Shown piece by piece: positions 18,222 through 35,107 of a stretch of DNA of 64,000 nt (the first letter of the stretch is position 1; every line of letters begins with the position of its first letter). The notes under the pieces were generated by a model. It ran no database searches. It was not told the origin of the DNA and saw only the letters and a program-made list of their open reading frames with translations. The DNA comes from Iphione sp. A-MEVVRFRX5 (lineage: Eukaryota): assembly GCA_976226885.1 (NCBI GenBank), contig OZ320319.1:33356001-33420000 (forward strand), in the 5' to 3' direction. A program made the position numbers and the translations under genes.

Positions 18222-20747
18222 TTCATATATAAAGTCAGACCTATATATATATAAAAAACCTCCTTTTCTGTCTGTCGTAAAATTCGCTATAAATATAGAA
18301 CAGTGTAGCCTATTGAATTAACATCTATCTGATCAGATGGGCGAACACTGCATTTACGCTGGCAAGCATTGTTTTGCAACATCTGCCAAACAACATGTAT
18401 ACATATGGATATTTCCTGTTAATGTACTCGGAAAACATGAAAAAGATTGATATTTTGATAAAGATTTCCCTCTTATCCTGCCCTGTCAGCACATAGGATG
18501 CTGCTTGTTCATGAAAAATAACATCATCTCCAAGATAAGGGACAGGTTTTGCAGTAACGCAAGCACATAATTATAGAATCGATACTACATTTCACTCTCT
18601 AATCATGCGATACATTAAGCTTTTCTTTACATTGTTGGACAAAAACGTATTTACTAGAGGTTTTAACTAGCGTGTTGAGTCGATCGTGTGATATTTTACT
18701 TGACTATATGTCTAATAGCTCATGGTAACATTTGGACAAATTAGAGGCTTTGCGTGCCATGATACAATTTTGAACAACATAAATGACGAAAACGAGTTAT
18801 CATCATTCTTTGTCAAGGATGATATTACCAAGTTCAGCCTCGGCGGTGTTCAAAGGGGTAATTCATTTCTTACTTACACTGCACAAGAGATATTTTACTT
18901 TCGAGCAATTTATTTGAGACAACATTTTTAAATATATATATATAGGCTATAACTTTAACTTACATGTGTGACAATGTGTTTTTTAACGTGTTAAGATACT
19001 ACACTGCTTTAGTAGCAACGTCATCAGGAGTATTGCTTTGGTAGCATTATATTTATCAGGAGATGCATTGTTCAAAGTAGGTCGTGGTAATGGATGGTTA
19101 GCTGGCCATTAACTGGATTTATTGCTCAGCTACATTATTTCATATACGCAAAGTAGGGGGCTCAAGCCCCAGTGAATCGAATCTGATGAAAAGCACATTC
19201 ATAGCCTTTATTGCATATTCACCATAACAGCATTCGTCATCTACAGATCAATCAGGTGCAGAGCCTCACCCGTCTCGTCGGATAATGTCACTCTTGGAAT
19301 CCATCTTTGTCTCGCCCCTCGTATCGGTAGACGAAAGCTATCCAACATGAGACGGAAACAATTTGTAACAGATCGTTGCCTCCATATCCTGAAAGTACGC
19401 GGCGACTAAAATCTCAGAGCGCTATCTTATGTAGCGTTGTAGCTCTAATGCAGCTATACCAGCTGAACCTACCCACATCTGCGGCAGGGCCCTCTCTCTA
19501 TACCAGTCATGCAATATCGACATCCAGCCGGGAAGCACGGGAGATTCCTTTCACCGTTACCCTGAACCAGAATGATAGCAGCTTTATTTATAGGTAAGAC
19601 AGGGTCATTAAATCGCGACTGTTTTATCCTATGGCTTTAACATTAATGCCTTGATATAAGTCGATCCTCAACAAAACGCAGACAGCAAAATGATGAAGAT
19701 GCCTGCTCAACAGAATAATAATCCTAGGAACATTCTCCTGTTCTATATTAGACGTTATATAATCAAAATAATGCTTCCAACTGTTAACACCAGGGGAATA
19801 GAATCGATAAGTATAATTTCTAAGATAAAGCAAACAAGAACAGCTACATTTTCAGTTGCTAACAACATTCCCCCTATGTCATCTAATGAAAAGTCTTAGT
19901 ATGACTGGAAATGCCAGCGAAACCATACAGAGCGAATGTAGCTGCGTTACCTAATTGAGTTGTTTTAATGTTTCTTTACTAAATGTGAGCTAGATGTACG
20001 AAAATCGCTTAATACATAATTTATGTTTCATGTATGACTACTTCCGTAGCTAACTCGGAGCGAACTCAATTTTCCGATATTTCTTAAGGCATTTAGTACG
20101 AATCCGAGCGATGATGTAAAGATTATCCTTGCGATCGGTCAGACAAAATGTTTACTCATTCTTTTATCTGTGAAAACGTTGCATCTGCTAGATTAAGAAA
20201 CAGTTTCCTTAATCTTTAGCAATGCATTGGAAACCTGAAATCCATTATAAATGAAATTCAAACATAACCTATACAGAGCTCACCACATTCTTGTTACCTC
20301 AAACAATAAAATCTCTTAATATGACTTGGGATGGTAGCAAGCCTTATTCTTATGATATCATCCTTCTTAATTGCTCGACAAAATTAGATGCATGGAATGT
20401 CGCACAAGGGGAAAAAAGTAGGGGAATTTATGTAGTTCTACAATAGTATATCATCGATGTTTAACATAATTATAATCTTAGCGTATATAGTTATCGTTTA
20501 GCACAGAGTTTGAGTTTTAAAAACATGAATATTGTGATCAGTCAGAAAATGTGTATAACAGGTTTTTGTGGACATAAACATAGAAGTAGCACCAAGATAC
20601 TGGTCCCCACTTGAAATCTGTTTGATTGTCCAGTGCGAATTAAGACAATTCGCACCATGACCACCTCAAGTCATTACCAAGTCACACCATAGACAACTCC
20701 CGGTATCACCAATCACTCAACGTCATAAGAAAGCTGGTCTCGAGATT

Positions 20748-20907
20748 CATTACCACAACACGACAACTTCACTGTGGAGATGAACATTTATTAAGAACAC
20801 ACAAAAGGCAGACAATAGCGTAAAATAACAATGACAATTTGAGCAATAAATATCATGTAAACTAACTGTGTATAAGAGTCCATGATAGAATAAAAGGTAA
20901 AATGCCC
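20748..20907 (-). repeat. Ngaro split direct repeat B2 (160 bp, 3' terminus)
   Basis: Identical to 21061-21220. Confidence 0.95.
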
Positions 20908-20966
20908 CCATCGATGGATGTCCAGGCCCAGCGATAGTTCTGAAAGTTTGTAGGGTGGGCGGGAGG

Positions 20967-21060
20967 CAACAGGTCGGCGACTAGAAGGTGAGTGATGGGC
21001 AGGCACTCACCTGTCGCTGCGGTAATGACTGCCAATGAAAGGCGCCCTCTCATTGGCCCA
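20967..21060 (-). repeat. Ngaro split direct repeat A2 (94 bp)
   Basis: Copy of 25196-25289; abuts B1 directly (predicted circle junction ggccca|cattac on + strand). Confidence 0.95.
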
Positions 21061-21220
21061 CATTACCACAACACGACAACTTCACTGTGGAGATGAACAT
21101 TTATTAAGAACACACAAAAGGCAGACAATAGCGTAAAATAACAATGACAATTTGAGCAATAAATATCATGTAAACTAACTGTGTATAAGAGTCCATGATA
21201 GAATAAAAGGTAAAATGCCC
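21061..21220 (-). repeat. Ngaro split direct repeat B1 (160 bp)
   Basis: Identical to 20748-20907; starts 4 nt after the YR stop; carries minus-strand AATAAA at 21105-21100. Confidence 0.95.
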
Positions 21221-21224
21221 AAAC

Positions 21225-22165
21225 TTAGAGTTGTTGGAGGGCTCGCCTGATATCCCGACGTGAGACCTTTGGGAGATATGCCTGGGCAGCTTCAGATCTC
21301 CAGTCACCGCGAGCCAGGATGTCCTTTAATGGCGTCCCCGCCTTAAAGGCGGCCTGGGCGCCCCCCCTGCGAAGGCCATGCATTGTCGGGCATGGGGCGG
21401 GCGCGCCCACGTCCCTAAGGGTGGCAGCCCACATTCGTCGCGCCACGCCTAGCGGGATAGGAACCGCTTCACCGGGGAACGCGAGAAGAGGGGTGCGGGA
21501 GGCACCCGGAGCGCGGAGGGCCGGGGGAAGCAGCGCCCCGACGTCGATCCGTTCAACGCAGCGAGGGGCATGGATCCTAACAGGGCGCCCCCCCCGCTGA
21601 CGGGTCTTCGACCACCGAAGAGTAACGTACACCGACTCATCCTCCACTTCAAGGTCGCGCGTCGTGAGATGCCGTTCGGGCGAAAACGCGCTGCAGGACT
21701 TCGCGAACAGGTTGGATTGCCTCAGGAGCGTGACGAACATGAGTGCAAAGGCAAATGCCAGCACCCTGCCGATGGCGGAGGACTGGAAGATACCGATGAC
21801 TCTGCGCAGGAGAGGTGCCTCCACGACCGGGCGGGCCGGAGGAGCCGACGACGATAACCTGAGTGCCCGGAGAGCGTTCGCGGTATGTCGATGCTCCCAG
21901 GCAGAGGTGTCACGTCCCAGTGACGCATAGTGATTCTTGAGTAGGGAGACAGTATTCGCGATGGACGCTGGGCAAAGAGACTCTGCGAGCTCCTCGATGA
22001 AGGCACACACCACCTTCGGAGAGGGTCGACAGTGGTCAAGGTTGAAGCGAATGGTGAAGCGGAGAAACTTCCGGACCGCCGCCTCACGGTTCGCCCTGGT
22101 ACCCAGTCGAATCGCCTCTAGTTGTCGCTGCTCTGCTTTCCGAAGGAGACGACAAAGGGCGGGGT
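21225..22165 (-). CDS. Ngaro tyrosine recombinase (frame open from just after the pol stop; no upstream ATG)
   Basis: Catalytic set present: LLRQSN (R), WSKT (K), HGLRRGG (H-x-x-R), RGDW (W), AQAYL (Y). The frame extends 5' of the track start as DPALCRLLRKAEQRQLEAIRLGTRANREAAVRKFLRF, resembling the YR N-terminal domain. Confidence 0.92.
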
Positions 22166-22171
22166 CTGAAA

Positions 22172-24046
22172 TTATATGAACCCGCTATAGTCATGGACCC
22201 AAGGATTAACAGCGACTGGGGTAAGTTGATGTTGTTGAATCGCTAGCTCCGCACGCTGTGCGCCGATCCGCGAGGCGAACGCCCTACTGAGGGTGTCGGC
22301 GAGTTGCATTTCTGCACCAGGGACATGTACGAAGGCGATCAATGTTTCCATTTTTGCGGACGCCATCCAAATTGCCCTGGCACACGCATTCACTACGAAG
22401 TCCCATCCTCTGCCGTGGTTGAAGATGTCAACTGCTGCTCTGTTATCGCAGCACACTAGAGCGTGCTGCCCTGGGGGGTATTGACTGAGGATGATCCGCA
22501 CAGCCATCATCACGTTCATAGCTTCCAGTTGTGTAATGTGGTGTCTCTGTACAACTTGGGGGGGCCACTCGTATGCATAGCATATCCGACGGTCTGTAGC
22601 TCCCGCGCTGGTCAGAGAGGCATCTGCTTTGATGATTACAGTGAATGGCGCCATGGCATAGAACTGTTTGCAGTTACACTGGCTGGCATACGTAGCCAGC
22701 CATGTGAGGTCTGCTCGTACCGTTGAATCAATCTGGATCTGGGCTGGGTCATGTGTCTGCATTGCGTGGAGTAACTGGCACATAAAGAGCCTGGCCGGCG
22801 CGATAACTTTGGCTAAGTGATTCACCTTGCCAGCCAGGCTCTGACACTCTTTTAGTGATGCCACCTCGCGTGTCCTCATCCTCTCGAATTCCATGGTGTA
22901 TGCTCTGAGCTTGTCGTCCAGAATACTCAGTTCTCCTCGCACTGAGTCGATCATCACTCCAAGCCACCGGACACGGGTTGCTGGTTGCTGCAGCTTTTGG
23001 GTCGCCACTGAGAGACCCAGGCGAGCCAAGAGTTCAAGCGTCTGATCGACGTCATGCTGTGCTTGTCTTTCAGTCGGCGCCACTAGGATGATATCATCGA
23101 GGTACATCAATGCGACGATATTCATGCGCCGGAGAGCTCTGACAATGAACTGCGCCGCCTTCTGCATATATAAGGCGGAGCAGCGGGTGCCGAAGGGCAT
23201 CACGGTATCGAAGTAGATCCTATCACGAACGCAGATGCCCAACAGTGGCAAGTCTGACGGGCAAACCCGAAAATGACGGTAAGCCCGTGGAAGGTCAATA
23301 ACCGCCATAAATGGTGACCCGTTCATTTGACACAGGATCTCAGTGAGCTGTTGGACTGTCGGTAGATCGTGGGTGTAGGAGGTGCCTTGGACGCAATTCT
23401 TATCGGTGTAATTGTTGACATTATGTATTGGCGGATAAGAGAGGTCAACGATTACCCTCCTTGACCCGTCCGCCTTAGGGCGGGTCATAAGGGGGGCAGT
23501 GACGAACCAAGGTTGGAATGGAGAGGTGCTAAAGGGCCTGATGAGTGCCCCTTCTTGTCTCTCAGTCTCCACGTACTGCTCGATTGCATCGATGTAGGCC
23601 TCCGCGGACGAATGGTTGGTCGATGTAGGCCTGATGAGAGGGGGTCCCCCGTAGCCTAGTGGGAACCCATAGTTGATCCCGTCCAATACTAACTTGTCGT
23701 CTTGATGCCCCGTGGTGACACTGGACCATGCATCGGTGTCGAGGGTACTGTCAAGCTTCAAGCGGGCCGCCTGGTTATTATTCACACCTGTGGCCACCAT
23801 GGTATTGTAGAGGTAGGCGAGCCTTGGGTCTACGTGTTCAGTTGGCGCTGGCCACGTCAAGACACGGTTGTGTGCGAGCAATTCAGATTCTAGCTGCAGA
23901 TGAGCAACCAAATCAACTGTGCACTCACCGGCAATATCTGATGTATAGGGCTCACCTAGGCCCGGGAGCATTCCGGAGTAGTGGCCCTGTGGAGAATGTC
24001 CGCAGCCACGCTGGGTCGTACCGCTGCTTGTGATTGCAGGCGACAC
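22172..24046 (-). CDS. Ngaro reverse transcriptase / RNase H
   Basis: RRVIVDLSYP, DLPRAYRH, MPFG, YLDD, WLGVMID; RNase H ADAS, HITQLEA, CDN, LADTLSR. First in-frame ATG is at 23971 (track start is GTG). No methyltransferase domain seen. Confidence 0.93.
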   Translation of the reverse strand: MSPAITSSGTTQRGCGHSPQGHYSGMLPGLGEPYTSDIAGECTVDLVAHLQLESELLAHNRVLTWPAPTEHVDPRLAYLYNTMVATGVNNNQAARLKLDSTLDTDAWSSVTTGHQDDKLVLDGINYGFPLGYGGPPLIRPTSTNHSSAEAYIDAIEQYVETERQEGALIRPFSTSPFQPWFVTAPLMTRPKADGSRRVIVDLSYPPIHNVNNYTDKNCVQGTSYTHDLPTVQQLTEILCQMNGSPFMAVIDLPRAYRHFRVCPSDLPLLGICVRDRIYFDTVMPFGTRCSALYMQKAAQFIVRALRRMNIVALMYLDDIILVAPTERQAQHDVDQTLELLARLGLSVATQKLQQPATRVRWLGVMIDSVRGELSILDDKLRAYTMEFERMRTREVASLKECQSLAGKVNHLAKVIAPARLFMCQLLHAMQTHDPAQIQIDSTVRADLTWLATYASQCNCKQFYAMAPFTVIIKADASLTSAGATDRRICYAYEWPPQVVQRHHITQLEAMNVMMAVRIILSQYPPGQHALVCCDNRAAVDIFNHGRGWDFVVNACARAIWMASAKMETLIAFVHVPGAEMQLADTLSRAFASRIGAQRAELAIQQHQLTPVAVNPWVHDYSGFI

Positions 24047-24149
24047 AGCCGGAATAGGTGAGAATGTTACGTAAGTCCATGGGCATTCCAGGTCAATTGG
24101 GGTTGAGGCGCGGTGTTGTTGGCCGGTACTACTGTTTCAACCCGATCCA

Positions 24150-25175
24150 CTAGTTTTTTTGGTCCTTATTTTCGTTATTCTTCTCACCTTTCTTCCAGCG
24201 ATGCTCAGGCTGACGATCTGGGCGTTGTTGCTGCTGATCTTGGTCCTTGGCCCTCATCTTGGTCTTACGAGCACATGCTGCTGCGGTGTGTTGGCACTCC
24301 CTATTTTGGACGCCGTACCAACACACCGTGCAGCGGTGCCAGTACGTAATGGCGCCCTCGGAGTGACCGTCAAAGTCGTAACATGTACCGACGTTGAATT
24401 GTGGGCATGGATGGCGTTTATGCTCCTCGGGAATTGAACCTTTCGTCACCGACAGTCTGTTCCTCAGGCGTTGGATCTGATCCACGTTGTTCCAGTCCAA
24501 TTTGCCTTGCTCAACGTGGTTAACAACAGTGAGTGACCAGTTGCGTACTTCATTCCAGGATGCCTACGCAGCGTCCTCACATATATCGGCAATGTGGGAC
24601 ACAAAATGGCAGACGTCAGAGCCCACTGGGAGTTCGTCCCGCAGGCGGGCGCACAGTGCGAGGACATATTCGGGTAAGGACAAATCTTCTACTGTTGGAC
24701 GTTTTTTAACCACCTGTGCCATTTCCCTAGGGAGAGACAGGTGGGGCTTCCATCTCTTATGGGTGTGGTTCGAGACGGGGTCAATATATGGCTTACCCTC
24801 ACAAGGCCCAAATGATAGTCGCTCCAGCCGGAGGAGGTTATCCACGTGCTGGTCCGCTTGCCTGCGATGATAGTCCTCAGGCTCCCTAGGATCCTCTCTC
24901 CACGGAGATCGTGACCGGTGGCGTTTTGCATTACCACGGTAATCCGAGGAGCGTCTGTCGCGCACCGGTGACCGTGGCGAAGATGGCCGTGTCGGTACAA
25001 CGGAGCTCCTAACCTTATTCCTTCTTTTGGACCTCGGTTTCTTGGGGGTACCCGTATCCTTCTTGAGGATCTTCATCATTTTCTCCTCGAGCTGTTCCAT
25101 CCTTATAAGGACTTGAAACAGAACTTGCTCGGTCGGAACCTTTTCAGGCTCGTTAAACAACGAATCGGACGACAT
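24150..25175 (-). pseudogene. Ngaro gag-like ORF interrupted by one in-frame TAG (24564-24566)
   Basis: ATG at 25175 (MSSDSLF...). The frame continues past the TAG as ASWNEVRNWSLTVVNHVEQGKLDW into track ORF 24150-24500, which has a Cys/His knuckle CPQFNVGTC...HRCTVC...HTAAAC typical of YR-element gag. Confidence 0.85.
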
Positions 25176-25195
25176 GCTAATATCGTAACAGGTCC

Positions 25196-25289
25196 CAACA
25201 GGTCGGCGACTAGAAGGTGAGTGACGAGCAGGCACTCACCTGTCGCTGCGGTAATGACCGCCAATGAAAGGCGCCCTCTCATTGGCCCA
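25196..25289 (-). repeat. Ngaro split direct repeat A1 (94 bp, 5' terminus)
   Basis: Matches 20967-21060 at 91/94 positions. Confidence 0.95.
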
Positions 25290-27331
25290 AATGATATTTT
25301 CATATGCGCGACACTGTCGACTTGTACAGCAGACCAACAGCTAGACATGGTGTGAAATAATTTCGTACTTCCAGCTGGCAGAACAAGCATTAATTTGGCA
25401 ACGGTGTGACTTGGTGATTGCAAGAGGTGGCAATGGCTTAAGTGAGGAGTACGTACGATGTATGAGTTAGTGGTGATACAATTTGTCGTGTTTCAAACCA
25501 GAATTGTCCCAGATTATCCACTTCTTGCCCTACCTACAATTCAAAACCAGACTAAGACTATTACATGAGGTAATAGCCTGTGTTGCGTTGGGTCAAATTG
25601 TTACTGTTACCATATTAATACCTAAAATGACATATTTATTCTGTATATTTGTCCCTCATTTGTATTCTTTCTTGACTACAATTAATATACTTTTATTAAT
25701 ATATATCATGCATACCTCAGAACAATATACATACATGTACATGTACTGTCTATAATGCGCTTATGGTATCTGGCTTGAAATGACCATGCCCATAGTTTAA
25801 TAGTATGGCTATTTCTACTACAAATTCCCCATTAATTTTTGAAATACTAAGCAAAAGTCGTCGAGGAAGGACCAGGTTAATGCTGTGCAAATATTAAGCT
25901 AGAATATGATTGAGGTATTTTGCTAATTGAGAACACAAATAAGAAAGCCGACAGCACGCTCAAATGTGAATCTTCCCCAGAGAGAATGTTCGCAGAGATA
26001 AAACGTTTGAAGGCCAAAGGTCCCTCTTGTATGTAGACGTTTTGAGGTAGAAGTTCGGCTACTGTGGATGTCTCGTTACATATATATCTAACTTAACTGA
26101 TCCAAATCAGAGGACGAGCATTAAGTCTTTTCAAATTGCATTCACTTAATCATTTACGTAAATTTACCTCGACTTCTTTACGGCAGCTTCTTCGCAAGCA
26201 TTACGTTTATATTCCTAGGACAAAGGGAAGAGCATTCGCCTTATTTACACTAATAATTTTCTCGGTTTCACACAAAGCCAACAGTTCAACTGTTTAAAGG
26301 TGGATCCTTCATAGCAATCCTTTTCATAATCCCTTCCTTTGTTGCACTGAAGACGATGAAGACAGAAATCCATGCCCATGCTTCGTCTAAAATCATCTGT
26401 ACTCGGGAAAGATACAGTATTCGAACTAAATGTGTACGTTAATGGAGCAATATCTTCTACCGCCTAATGAGAAACATCACTCTTCCATATCAATACTGAT
26501 ACTACACGTATTTTAGTGAAGTGAGCCCAAACAAAAAGGGCCATCATAAAAAAATAGTGGCCTATAGCAATGGCAGCCTCCATTGCGTGACTACGAGGTG
26601 GATGGAGATAAAAACGTATGCTGGCCTGCTCTGTTCCGATGAGAAAAATGTTCACATGTTCTATAACAACGTCATACGTGCTATATATAATATACCTAAA
26701 CATGTCACGCTGGAGGCAAGAGGGGATCTACGATCAGCCGATTGACCCATTTTTATGTGTGGATTAACTCGATCTGCTTATCTAAAAACAGTATATTGAT
26801 ACAACTGTTCCCTTAGCTTTGCTGCGGGAGACAGAACAGTACCTATAAAGGATTCCTTTACGTGCCAACACAGTGATGGTGTATTTCGATGCAGCATTGT
26901 TGACACAACAGGCAGCGTTTACGTATTTAGGCAAAATATGATGGATCCAGCCCATCTGAACGACTTTTAAGGATTTCTGACAACGTATCTAGCTTTGCAC
27001 CATTCACAGAGAGAAGAATGAGATTCATCATGAAAAGAGAACGAGGCCTTTTTGAAACGTGGTCGTATAATTTTAATCTCCCTGATAGCCTTTCGCTTTC
27101 GGTTTCATGCAACCGCACAAAATTTCCACTACATTAAGCTGTGCAGTTTTTTTTAATCGCAACACTCCTAGTGACGTTCGACGTTAAATGGCAGTTGTCC
27201 TATATGTGTAGAGTGGGCCCCGCCAGACACAACCAGCCAGACACCAATGGAGCAATTTCCTGATGGTTGGCGTCCACCGAGAGAACAGATTCGTCTCCCT
27301 TATACATGGGTGTTACGATCACCCGAAGAAA

Positions 27332-30807: not shown

Positions 30808-33800
30808 TTAGCAACTTTCGATGAGACGCTGTGGCTTTGTGACTGATCGGGAGGACCGGCGCAGTTCCGGGCTAGCAGAAACAGTCTGCTTGGTGCACGA
30901 CTCCGATGTGGTAGGGCATTCTCTGGTAGCACGAATGGGTGATTCTACGTGATCTTGGAGCGGAGTGGACACCGGACCCTCTACTTGTACGTTAGGTGGT
31001 GTGTCCTGTCTGGGAACTGGCTGAAGATGTCTTCTGTTCCTTCGAGTCAGTCCTGTTTCAGTCTGCACAATATACGATCTTGGGGTATCTGCAGCACTCT
31101 TGATGATGCCTGGCTGTTTCCAGCCTTTTTGGCCATCGGTCTTGATGGCTACCTGCTCACCAACTGGCAGTGGTGGTAGAGGATGTACACCATGATGACG
31201 ATTGTAGTGATGAGCATATGTCTCCTTACTGACTTGATCTTTTGCTAGAACCGATTCCCAAGCGGGCCATCTCGGTTCCAGTGTAGCTGGTAGAACTGGC
31301 AGGGTTGTCCTAATGTGGCGACCCATCATCAGCTGTGATGGGCTGCATCCAGTGGCAGAGATCGGAGTATCTCTGTATATCATGAGCGCGAGCCAGGGGT
31401 CCTGTTGACTCAGGATGCGCTTAGCTGTTTGGACTGCGCGCTCAGCTTCTCCGTTAGCATTTGGGAGGTACGGGCTTGTGGTCACGTGATTAAACACGTA
31501 CTTCTCACCAAACTTCTTGAATTCCGATGAAGTAAATTGGGGCCCATTGTCAGAGACGACTTCCTTTGGCACCCCAAATCTTGCGAAGCTGTCCTTCAGA
31601 CGCCCAATCACTGCATCCGCAGATGTGGTTGAGAGGAGCAAAACTTCGATCCATCTAGAATAATAATCGCAGACGACAAGGAAGTCCTTTCCCTTGAATT
31701 GACACAGGTCAATAGCAATCCTTTGCCATGGGCCTTGGGGTAATGGAGTCGGCATCAGTGGCTCCTTTCGTTGTGTTGGTCTCACAGACTGGCAGTGCTG
31801 GCAGTTTCCGACAATCTTCTTGACGTCTGCAGTGAGACCTGGCCACCACACACCAAGGCGAGCTCTCTCAAGGCATTTGGTGATGCCTTGGTGTCCGTCA
31901 TGGATCCTATCAAGGATTTCGGGTTGCATGGCGACTGGAATGACGATCCGGTTGCCAAACACCAAAAGTCCATCTGTCACGGACAGCATTGCTCTGTGAG
32001 CATACAGTTTACGTAGGCTGTCGGGAACATCCTTTTCATACTTTGGCCATCCAGTAAGGGTATACACAATGGCTGCCTGCAGTGCAGGATCATTCTGAGT
32101 GGAGTGCCTTAGATTGTCCCTCTTCTGGGGTGATGCTGGGAAGCCAGTTTCAACAGACTGGACATACAGCTCGACATCTTCAGCGGTGCTACTCATCTCC
32201 TTTGTGCTCATGGGGCTTCTAGACAGAGCATCGGACACATACATATCCTTCCCTGGCACATACTTGGCCTGGACATTATATCTCATGAGACGCATCAACA
32301 GCCTTTGGCATCTGAGGGGCACATTATCCAGATCCTTTGTGTTGATGAGAGGGACGAGTGGCTTGTGGTCAGTCAACAGCGTAACAGTCTGTAGTCCGCA
32401 GAGGAATCGATCAAACTTTTCACATGCCCAGACACCTGCCAAGCACTCCTTCTCTATCTGGGCATATCGCTGCTCAGCTCCACTTAGTGTTCGGGAGCAA
32501 AATGCCACTGGCTTCAAGACATCCCCGTGGTGTTGCAGGAGTACTCCCCCCAAGCCATAGGAACTGGCATCTGCGCTTACTGTGGTGGGCTTGCTGACAT
32601 CATAATAGGCGAGTACAGGAGTCGACGAGATGAGGGTCTTCATCTTCTTGAGTGCCTCCTGTTGTGCGGGTCCCCATGTCCAGTCGACGTCATTCTTTAA
32701 TAGGTCGTTGAGGGGACGAGTGACAACATGTAGGTCTGGCAGGTATGACCCAAGGTAGTGCACCATACCTAATATCTGTCTCAGCTGGGTGACTGAAGAT
32801 GGTGCTGGCATCTTCTGGATTGCTTCAACCTTTTCTGGGTCGGCTGAAACTCCATCCTTGGTGAACTTATGCCCGAGGAACTTCAGTTCACTTTGGCGAA
32901 AGGAACACTTGTCCTTGTTCAGCTGTAGGCCAGCTTGTCTGAGGACATTTAAGACGTTCGCCAGCCTGTCATCATGCTCCTTCTCATCTTTACCATAGAT
33001 GAGGATGTCGTCCATGTAGGTAAAAACACCTTGGACTCCACTGAGAACCTCTAGCATTTTTCGCATAAAGATCTCAGGGGTGGATGTAATGCCAAAGGGT
33101 AGGCGACGGAAGCAATACCTCCCAAATGGAGTTAGGAATGTCGTCAACTCCTGGCTGTCTTCGTCAAGAGGGATCTGATAAAATCCACTGGCAGCATCCA
33201 GACAGGAGAACACAGTAGCTCCAGACAGCTTGGATGTGAGGTCCTCCAAGGTAGGCAAGATGAAGCGCTCTCGCCTGACATTGACATTCAACTTCTTCAA
33301 GTCGACGCAAAGACGAACTTTCCCTGATTTCTTGACCACTGGCACCATGGGAGCACACCATGGAGTGGGTTTTGTGATTTCCCTTATGACCCCTGCTGTC
33401 ATAAGACGGTCGAGCTCCTCCTTAACTTTCGGCAAGATTGGGATAGGTACTCTGCGGGCAACATTGATCGCGAACGGCTGTGCGTCATCCTTCAGGACGA
33501 TTTTGACGGGGTCAGTTTTGAGGCAACCAACATCATCAGTGACAGTGCAGATCTTGGCAATGAGGCCCATTTGTGATGCTGCTCCCCTTCCGAGAAGATT
33601 CTCAACTTCATTCGCCACAACCAGTATTCGAAACTGGTACCGAGTCTCCTTCACTATGGTATTAGCGGTGAACTCACCCTTGCAGTTCAGGGGTCCACCC
33701 GGGCTGGATAGGTTGACTGCAACTTCTTTTAGTGGCGGTCTGGGTTTTAGCTTAAGGTAGTTGACGTACGACATCACGGACACGTCTGCTCCTGAGTCGA

Positions 33801-34755
33801 TCTTGAACCCAATTGGCCTACCACCTCCGATGGCCAGGTTAACCTTCCATGCTGGGCTACCATCATCACAGCCAACTGCTCCACAAAAGTATTCAGACTG
33901 ATACTCCTGGTCTGTATGACAGACTTCTTGGACCTTCTTGCGGCACACAGATGCAAAGTGGCCCTTCTTTTTGCAGTTGTTGCATACTTTCCCCAGGGCA
34001 GGGCACGAGCCGGGATCTGATGAGCGGTGGATGTAGCCACATCTACCGCACTTGGACTTGGACTGGCTAGGCTGACTGGAACCTTGATGAGGGGCAGAGG
34101 ACAGATCCTTGCTCCAATCACGAGAGGGATGTTTCTTGCCTGGCTTCCTGCGATTTCTTCCACCATCCTTCTTGACGAAGTTGACGGCCCCGGTAGACTC
34201 ATTCTGACTCTTAACAAGCTCCGAGTGCCGTGCCATCTCCACCGCTTTGTCTAGTGTCAGAGTGTCTTGTTCCAGCTGAAGCTTTTTCGACATCTCTTTG
34301 TCGAGCATGCCGCTTATTAAGCGGTCTCGTATATGCTCTTCTTCCTTATCTTCAAAGCGGCAGTATGCGGCAAGATCATGCAGATTACGGACAAAACACT
34401 CGACAGACTCAGTGGACAGTTGGCAACGCTGGTAGAATTTCGCCCTTTCATGTATGGTATTTCTCTTTGGCACGAAATACTCATCAAACTTTTTGATGAC
34501 AACATCAAAATCATTTTTCGGGTCGATCGGGTCGGGATCTGCCTCTGTTGGCGCAGGGGCAGCTTCAAAGCGGAAGGACTTGTAGATATTTTCCGCCTGC
34601 CTTCCCATGGCATAAATGAGAGAGGACACCTGGATCTCCCCTTCATCTCGGTGTAGCTTTGTGGCAATGCGAAATCGCATGAACCTCTCCTTCCATTCTG
34701 GCCACTTTGAGGGCTGCTCAAAGGGGAATGACTCTGGAGGGTTAAACTTAGGCAT
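30808..34755 (-). CDS. Gag-Pol polyprotein (1315 aa from the first ATG)
   Basis: Gag, two Cys knuckles (CGRCGYIH...C; CNNCKKKGHFASVC), protease FKIDSGAD, RT (LDAASGFYQ, LPFG, YMDD), RNase H (ADAS, TDHKPL), integrase (HDGHQG...C..C; DLC, DNG, NGEAE). No stops or frameshifts. Confidence 0.96.
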   Translation of the reverse strand: MPKFNPPESFPFEQPSKWPEWKERFMRFRIATKLHRDEGEIQVSSLIYAMGRQAENIYKSFRFEAAPAPTEADPDPIDPKNDFDVVIKKFDEYFVPKRNTIHERAKFYQRCQLSTESVECFVRNLHDLAAYCRFEDKEEEHIRDRLISGMLDKEMSKKLQLEQDTLTLDKAVEMARHSELVKSQNESTGAVNFVKKDGGRNRRKPGKKHPSRDWSKDLSSAPHQGSSQPSQSKSKCGRCGYIHRSSDPGSCPALGKVCNNCKKKGHFASVCRKKVQEVCHTDQEYQSEYFCGAVGCDDGSPAWKVNLAIGGGRPIGFKIDSGADVSVMSYVNYLKLKPRPPLKEVAVNLSSPGGPLNCKGEFTANTIVKETRYQFRILVVANEVENLLGRGAASQMGLIAKICTVTDDVGCLKTDPVKIVLKDDAQPFAINVARRVPIPILPKVKEELDRLMTAGVIREITKPTPWCAPMVPVVKKSGKVRLCVDLKKLNVNVRRERFILPTLEDLTSKLSGATVFSCLDAASGFYQIPLDEDSQELTTFLTPFGRYCFRRLPFGITSTPEIFMRKMLEVLSGVQGVFTYMDDILIYGKDEKEHDDRLANVLNVLRQAGLQLNKDKCSFRQSELKFLGHKFTKDGVSADPEKVEAIQKMPAPSSVTQLRQILGMVHYLGSYLPDLHVVTRPLNDLLKNDVDWTWGPAQQEALKKMKTLISSTPVLAYYDVSKPTTVSADASSYGLGGVLLQHHGDVLKPVAFCSRTLSGAEQRYAQIEKECLAGVWACEKFDRFLCGLQTVTLLTDHKPLVPLINTKDLDNVPLRCQRLLMRLMRYNVQAKYVPGKDMYVSDALSRSPMSTKEMSSTAEDVELYVQSVETGFPASPQKRDNLRHSTQNDPALQAAIVYTLTGWPKYEKDVPDSLRKLYAHRAMLSVTDGLLVFGNRIVIPVAMQPEILDRIHDGHQGITKCLERARLGVWWPGLTADVKKIVGNCQHCQSVRPTQRKEPLMPTPLPQGPWQRIAIDLCQFKGKDFLVVCDYYSRWIEVLLLSTTSADAVIGRLKDSFARFGVPKEVVSDNGPQFTSSEFKKFGEKYVFNHVTTSPYLPNANGEAERAVQTAKRILSQQDPWLALMIYRDTPISATGCSPSQLMMGRHIRTTLPVLPATLEPRWPAWESVLAKDQVSKETYAHHYNRHHGVHPLPPLPVGEQVAIKTDGQKGWKQPGIIKSAADTPRSYIVQTETGLTRRNRRHLQPVPRQDTPPNVQVEGPVSTPLQDHVESPIRATRECPTTSESCTKQTVSASPELRRSSRSVTKPQRLIESC

Positions 34756-35107
34756 GACTGACTTTGACAAGGCTATACGTACGTGACTGCTGGGTGTATA
34801 GGGTCAGGCCTTACTCACTATGACACAGTACTGCCTTTAGCTTGACACCAAAGGGAAGACAATTTTCCTTTTCTTCAATAAATTCTACTGTCTCTGTTGT
34901 CTACATGGCCTGATGTGGCTGATGAATAGGTAAATTCCTCTCACCTTAGTGGATGCCCTGAATGGAGGTCTCTCACCTACCCATCATGTGCTCACATCTG
35001 CTCACTTTCTTGATCCATCTCCATCCTCTTCATCTCTTGTCATCAGGATGAAATACAGGTGTCTGGAGATGCTCCTGTGCCTTGTCAGGCCCTAACACAA
35101 GCTTTAG

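Follow-up and report, generated by a model that had tools for sequence, protein, structure and literature searches.

How does a retrotransposon make a recombinase whose reading frame has no start codon of its own? The question is raised by an element in the genome of Iphione sp. A-MEVVRFRX5 (assembly GCA_976226885.1, contig OZ320319.1, positions 33,356,001-33,420,000; this whole stretch of 64,000 nt is referred to as the window, and window coordinates are used throughout). The minus strand of the window carries, from 25289 to 20748, a complete Ngaro-type tyrosine recombinase (YR) retrotransposon with split direct repeats (A1...B1 A2 B2), in which gag, a reverse transcriptase (RT)/RNase H gene (pol) and the YR gene follow one another on a single strand. 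The YR frame comprises 319 codons and opens at 22184, after a TAG at 22187-22185 that lies inside the end of pol, and its first Met stands six codons before the Arg of the LLRQSN motif, as an earlier reading of the window (the original prediction) had described. That reading proposed that YR is translated from a spliced subgenomic mRNA. Our analysis indicates that such an mRNA is most likely and that the phase-1 3′ splice site it named (22166/22165) is right, but that the upstream exon it chose, in the A1 terminal repeat, is very probably wrong, the conserved 5′ splice site being located within gag. We put at roughly 0.87 the probability that this gag donor, at 24797/24796, is joined to the YR acceptor, giving a protein in which residues 1-126 of Gag are fused to YR. 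The features concerned are listed below, a slash within a motif marking the splice junction.

24150..25175, minus strand, gag open reading frame (ORF); N-terminal part variable, core conserved, end Cys/His-rich
24797..25175, minus strand, predicted coding exon 1, spanning Gag 1-126 and one further base; includes a coiled-coil-like stretch, a basic patch and an S/R/P-rich linker
24791..24797, minus strand, 5′ splice site G/GTAAGC (Gly-Lys codons GGT AAG), phase 1, conserved in sister elements
22166..24796, minus strand, predicted intron of 2631 nt, containing the Gag core, the frameshift site and all of pol
22172..24136, minus strand, pol open frame of 654 residues; RT (PF00078) and RNase H-like end, methyltransferase absent
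22165..22174, minus strand, pol stop TAA followed by 3′ splice site TTTCAG/A, conserved in sister elements
21225..22165, minus strand, predicted exon 2, a full Cre-like tyrosine recombinase with helical N-domain and R-K-H-R-W-Y catalytic domain

Both splice sites were examined in sister elements of the same genome, which holds many diverged families and no second close copy of the window element. Genome searches returned at least 52 DNA matches and at least 127 YR matches, and our sample took in 103 loci. DNA similarity supplied 23 of them. The other 80 were YR matches, namely the 60 ranking next by score, apart from a few passed over, and 20 chosen across the most distant ones; about 25 YR matches were left out. 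The pol sequences of the sisters are 38-84% identical to that of the window copy, split repeats are present (A pairs in 77, B pairs in 75), and redundancy is low, the 94 testable elements falling into 92 clusters at 80% DNA identity.

When the start of YR in the sisters was projected from protein alignments, an AG stood exactly at the projected position in 100 of the 102 YR-bearing elements, with C (95) or T (5) at -3 and A (93) or G (7) at +1. The two misses are L034, which is offset by a nearby indel and has TTTCAG/ATC, and L098, a decayed copy with TTTTCAG one base off. From -14 to -3 the density of AG is 0.0009 per nt, compared with about 0.06 in flanking coding DNA, and 71% of the bases are pyrimidines. 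The pol stop codons right before the AG are TAA (40) or TGA (35) and never TAG (0); among gag stops, TAG accounts for 43 of 80. Together with the gag site, these signals match those of a U2-type intron (5′ G/GTRAG, 3′ pyrimidine tract and YAG) with compatible phases. The TTTCAG/AC of the window, which the original prediction had placed six nt past the pol TAA, was reproduced and is conserved far beyond chance, and on the strength of these signals we regard splicing to 22166/22165 as highly probable.

The mechanism suggested in the literature is a different one. In PMC13003380, Poulter and Butler 2015 are cited for the view that programmed frameshifting, in the region where YR and pol overlap, is the likely means of producing YR. 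Here this would mean a -1 ribosomal frameshift in a short overlap and a Gag-Pol-YR polyprotein. The YR frame of the window does overlap the end of pol by 13 nt in the -1 frame, 53 of 100 sisters also have YR in the -1 frame, and the elements apparently do shift between gag and pol. However, the remaining 47 have YR in the +1 frame (30) or in the same frame as pol (17), whereas relative to the acceptor the YR frame starts at AG+2 in all of them; an upstream in-frame ATG is absent from 81 of 100 sister YR frames. Heptamers of the form XXXYYYZ occur within -60 to +40 of the pol/YR junction in 12 of 100 elements, as opposed to 84 of 96 at gag/pol, and two shifts in succession would be expected to leave YR very scarce. 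A shift would also fail to explain why YAG is invariant, why AG is excluded upstream of it, why TAG is missing among the pol stops and why GGTA[AG]G never varies in gag, and we consider it very improbable that YR is made in this way. In fungal Ngaros, too, as far as the account in PMC3783388 extends, YR ORFs are either in frame with pol or shifted, a variability that suits splicing better. In one Iphione sister (L142, G000:C11:66729397-66730290) pol and YR form one 934-codon frame with no stop before the AG, and acceptor and gag donor are both retained.

As regards the donor, a first scan of 23 elements found a phase-1 G/GTAAG at a Gly-Lys dipeptide of Gag and no other conserved phase-1 site. 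When the position was found from a protein motif only, 79 of 79 elements had GGT for Gly, followed by AAG (73) or AGG (6), and a profile search built from those 79 gave GGTAAG in 84 and GGTAGG in 12, that is, in 96 of 96 covered elements (of the 103 loci, 5 have no such region and 2 stop short of the column). By comparison, GGT makes up 18.6% of Gly codons in the background, and third codon positions are saturated, no codon exceeding 0.78 of its residue in conserved columns of pol, YR and gag. The site is invariant at -1 G, +1 G, +2 T, +3 A and +5 G and marks the border between the variable N-terminal part of Gag and its conserved core. It has the appearance of a fixed yet sub-optimal 5′ splice site, as would be expected if unspliced RNA must survive.

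Because the conserved donor lies in gag, the predicted product is a fusion of the Gag N-terminal part to YR, 439 residues long in the window, rather than the near-bare YR with a 14-residue leader that follows from an exon in A1. Asp is encoded at the junction by 89 of 94 sister elements. Neither exon is interrupted in 61, whose products are nearly all of 430-572 residues, and sister introns are mostly 2.5-2.8 kb. Exon 2 encodes the catalytic set R148, K186, H262, R265, W288 and Y296 and no DDE integrase. An AlphaFold model of exon 2 places a helix at residues 2-17, right at the acceptor, with a pLDDT of 92; the model matches Cre over its whole length, and the fold also matches lambda Int. Since the helix of the N-domain begins at the acceptor, a protein begun at the first Met (residue 141) would lack that domain.

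The GGTAAG in gag might instead be kept for packaging or for U1-mediated control of polyadenylation, with the acceptor being served by other or several donors, or YR being expressed from an internal promoter or a non-AUG start. In favour of such a role, the B1 repeat contains an AATAAA at 21105, as the original prediction had noted, and full-length RNA must therefore read through B1. Yet the gag donor is phase-matched to the acceptor, the 23-element scan offers no other conserved phase-1 candidate, and gene models from amphioxus, described below, join exactly these two points, so that an explanation of this kind seems highly unlikely. In the sisters each of the two B copies has AATAAA (63 of 75) or ATTAAA (7 of 75) some 40 nt short of its end (21105-21100 and 20792-20787 in the window), and in the clade of the window element A2 puts a GGTGAGT just 3′ of the poly(A) signal of B1.

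Fusions of the kind we predict are present among public gene models. In a YR profile search of 1.84 billion representative proteins, the best 150 of 424 matches (E up to 1e-30) include four Branchiostoma proteins and one from Glandiceps, all of them RefSeq models, that have a low-complexity N-terminal part ahead of YR and lack RT. XP_078682739.1 (503 residues) is identical to the Gag protein XP_019623496.1 over residues 1-173 and then continues as YR, XP_078682969.1 matches KAI8515333.1 over residues 1-211 and then continues likewise, and in both amphioxus pairs the full Gag continues with Gly-Lys exactly at the break. Three more loci have a junction of the XP_078682739.1 type, as does an older model from B. 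belcheri, and four further Branchiostoma fusion models (P0121, P0166, P0167 and P0168) have starts that resemble the Gag N-terminus. Like the predicted window product, the 'uncharacterized' proteins XP_078682739.1, XP_078682969.1, XP_019631222.1, XP_078616156.1, XP_035665974.1, XP_066287688.1 and XP_078660129.1 pass straight from the Gag N-terminal part into YR, lacking both the Gag core and RT; unlike it, they belong to distant elements with a different type of Gag core and are automated models. Word-based protein searches with YR returned 4 and 10 matches, none of them a clear fusion, Pfam recognises neither Gag nor the amphioxus fusions, and an ESM Atlas search with Gag 1-126 gave no usable match. 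The residue pair [SPTA][DEG] occurs at the start of YR in 28 of 64 database proteins, which is suggestive and was not counted as support. In metagenomic sequence, locus L162 has TAA TTTCAG/AA at the exact projected place and AAAAAAC before pol, and loci L164 and L167 have a stop followed by YAG in the same phase.

Several points weigh against a splice from gag to YR. For this organism the splice is a prediction from genomic sequence, and the RefSeq fusions, being automated models, are independent predictions and not proof, given that gene finders favour GT-AG joints. The donor is free, hence weak, at -2 and +6, and a branch-point test found A enriched at -26 and -23, within pol His-Asp/Asn-Tyr codons, with no clear consensus. 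Of the five metagenome loci inspected, L165 and L169 are too decayed for a clean phased acceptor, the Gly-Lys donor could be placed in none, and two (L167:1043 and L169:113) share a phase-1 CAG/GTGAGTC in gag, about 20 codons before the start of the KSG/KSD core, which is possibly the donor of another clade. Intron-less retrocopies were not found among the matches to a YR-start pattern whose estimated sensitivity for known starts lies roughly between one half and three quarters: 127 starts have the YAG and 1 (L161, a decayed copy with pol upstream) does not. This absence is compatible with a spliced RNA without packaging signals and lends no support to the splice. Finally, the window copy itself may be unexpressed, because its gag is broken by an in-frame TAG (24566-24564) and its pol is out of the register used by the sisters; both defects fall within the predicted intron.

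Expression of pol appears to follow a separate route, by way of the following feature.

24153..24159, minus strand, slippery heptamer A AAA AAC at the end of gag; -1 shift into pol in the sisters, pol of the window copy in another frame

The sequence A AAA AAC is a standard -1 frameshift signal. It stands in the gag frame at the end of gag in 84 of 96 sisters, and 81 of 96 have pol open in the -1 frame relative to it. A -1 shift at this site is the probable source of pol, although the signal for a stimulatory structure 3′ of it is weak (median z -0.8; 20 of 92 below -2). A second acceptor serving pol was considered and dropped, the slippery site accounting for pol.

The exon favoured by the original prediction lies in A1, the relevant parts of which are these.

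25196..25289, minus strand, A1 terminal repeat; promoter-like, with two inverted repeats
25260..25286, minus strand, first A1 inverted repeat (GCCAATGA...TCATTGGC); holds the ATG at 25282, arms co-vary across families
25215..25241, minus strand, second A1 inverted repeat (AGGTGAGTG...CACTCACCT); holds the donor at 25239
25219..25224, minus strand, initiator-like TCACTC; candidate transcription start near 25222

The proposal was that a 14-codon mini-exon, running from the ATG at 25282 through MRGRLSLAVITAAT and a G to ACAG/GTGAGT at 25240/25239, is spliced to the same YR acceptor. We reproduced this sequence, recomputed the same 3074-nt intron and 327-residue product, and found the single A1/A2 difference within the mini-exon (GCG/GCA); the phases are compatible, ACAG/GTGAGT is a textbook donor, and the same ATG and donor recur in L003 and, with GC in place of GT, in L033 and L034. 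Across the sisters, however, it is the acceptor and its phase that are kept (100/102) and not the A1 donor, which is found at the same place only in the closest relatives (GT in L001, L003 and L031; GC in L033, L034 and L032). An ATG with an in-phase donor-like site at the proposed position is confined to L001, L003, L033 and L034, the last two with GC, and in L031 the reading frame hits a stop. Any ATG with an in-phase donor-like site is present in 12 of 77 A repeats, mostly at unrelated positions. Moreover, both signals belong to structures. The ATG is part of the co-varying first inverted repeat, which in L042, L085 and L091 reads CCAGTG/CACTGG or CCGGTG/CACCGG with loss of the ATG, and the GTGAGT pairs with ACTCAC in a hairpin arm, the opposite arm in L033 having changed in a way that compensates for the GT-to-GC substitution there. 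The A repeats are structured in general (median z -2.3), with a perfect inverted-repeat arm of at least 6 bases in the first 36 nt of 62 of 76, compared with 66 of 760 shuffles. A motif TCA[CGT]T[CT], which we take to be an initiator (Inr), occupies a constant position in 63 of 76 A repeats (9.4% of shuffles); read in this way, it would put the start of the transcript near 25222, downstream of both the A1 ATG and the A1 donor. The first ATG 3′ of the motif is that of gag, in frame to the gag donor in 57 of 63. With a far better conserved donor present in gag, which had been overlooked together with the slippery heptamer, the gag TAG and the pol register, the mini-exon has very little chance of being the main route to YR. 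As for the first inverted repeat, it could be a promoter, a recombinase binding site or a single-strand hairpin substrate. In L106, L109, L134, L141 and others its core is clade-dependent, namely CCAAT/ATTGG, CACGTG or GCGCATGCGC, presumably corresponding to NF-Y, E-box and NRF1 sites.

We envisage, from genomic evidence, that a single RNA polymerase II transcript starts inside A1, probably at the initiator-like motif, and serves three products. Unspliced RNA would give Gag, and by a -1 frameshift at A AAA AAC would give Gag-Pol. Spliced RNA, in which the G/GTAAG after gag codon 126 would be joined to the TTTCAG/A behind the pol stop, would give the 439-residue fusion, with Gly becoming Asp at the joint. 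YR would thereby borrow the start codon of Gag and its coiled-coil and basic N-terminal part, which may bring YR into the particle or the nucleus.

The remaining repeats of the element are as follows.

21061..21220, minus strand, B1 repeat; AATAAA at 21105-21100, GT-rich end
20967..21060, minus strand, A2 repeat; B1/A2 joint TAATG/TGGG (here the slash marks the joint), the presumed circle junction
20748..20907, minus strand, B2 repeat; right end of the element

By structure the element is a Ngaro (order DIRS) in the sense of the definitions available from PMC4157794, PMC6681497, PMC3783388 and PMC9210276, sharing with Ngaros the order gag, RT/RNase H, YR, the A1...B1 A2 B2 layout, the lack of a methyltransferase and the short pol/YR overlap. 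In the window copy B1 and B2 are 100% identical and A1 and A2 about 96%. The terminal repeats are direct and not inverted, which distinguishes the element from DIRS1-like elements, with their inverted terminal repeats and internal complementary region. Gag was assigned from position and Cys/His motifs, Pfam giving no match, and RNase H from acidic motifs by eye; RVT_1 is the only Pfam match in pol, where about 36 residues follow the last RNase H motif and leave no room for a methyltransferase. PAT-like elements, also of the DIRS order, have the same split-direct-repeat layout and a Cys/His motif in Gag but carry a methyltransferase after RNase H; one PAT lineage has lost it, as stated in the portion of PMC4157794 available, so that placement among Ngaros needs an RT/RNase H phylogeny. 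Amphibian Ngaros differ in carrying an SGNH hydrolase ORF, which the window element does not have.

No target-site duplication was detected at the element. Right ends and the B1/A2 joint read TAATG (TAATT in some), and left flanks show imperfect versions of the end sequence (TAATT, TCATT or CAATG, with TCATT in the window copy), which suggests that the ends (25294-25290 and 20752-20748) are a short, mismatch-tolerant crossover site used without duplication. The flanking host DNA contains a 42-nt inverted match of 76% identity (20655-20696/25395-25436). Over loci L001-L160 the Iphione genome holds at least about 100 Ngaro families, nearly each of them with one copy and with repeats 95-100% identical; family diversity is thus very high and copy number very low. 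At L031 and L032 the element adjoins another copy or remnant of itself in tandem, with extra YR fragments. Elsewhere in the window (30808-34803, minus strand), a 1331-codon frame with RT, RNase H, H2C2 and rve integrase in Gypsy-like order marks a separate retrotransposon of the long terminal repeat (LTR) type. An Rfam scan of 20000-26000 gave no match.

Retroviruses and LTR retrotransposons use spliced subgenomic mRNAs, as for env, for foamy-virus pol and for gag of copia and BARE. The window element resembles them in having one weak donor that would balance unspliced and spliced RNA and in a -1 shift of the A AAA AAC type for pol. It differs in that their integrase is made within Pol, whereas here the integrating enzyme would stand alone on a Gag fragment, the intron removing the Gag core and pol.

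Spliced expression of YR in Ngaro or DIRS elements was not found in a search of full-text literature (closed-access reviews, Repbase notes and supplements lying outside it), and the accessible text of PMC7192593, PMC5633606, PMC2632668, PMC9341512, PMC12477816 and PMC3266345 contains nothing on it. Where the Ngaro literature covered here addresses YR at all, it proposes a frameshift (PMC13003380), whereas our data indicate splicing onto the Gag N-terminus. As far as these sources reach, the element is thus of a known kind, with a mechanism of YR expression that we did not find described and that contradicts the published frameshift guess.

We lean towards the view that splicing of YR onto the Gag N-terminus is a general route in animal Ngaros (the Iphione families, amphioxus, probably a hemichordate, and others) that takes the place of frameshifting, and that the active integrase is a chimera of Gag and YR, in which the Gag portion provides for packaging, import into the nucleus or the choice of target. 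In Cafeteria Ngaros, loss of ORF1 accompanies an altered integration preference, according to the available part of PMC8547959; a Gag-YR chimera, if real, may be the mechanism by which ORF1 affects that preference. Such a route would explain how widespread Ngaro elements express a recombinase gene that has no start codon, offers a precise alternative to frameshifting, with one junction and one protein size, and would account for a set of 'uncharacterized' RefSeq proteins. It would also mean that the true Ngaro integrase is a protein fused to part of Gag, a point that bears on any biochemical work on the enzyme, and that one retroelement combines frameshifting with splicing to make three proteins that share a single Gag N-terminus.

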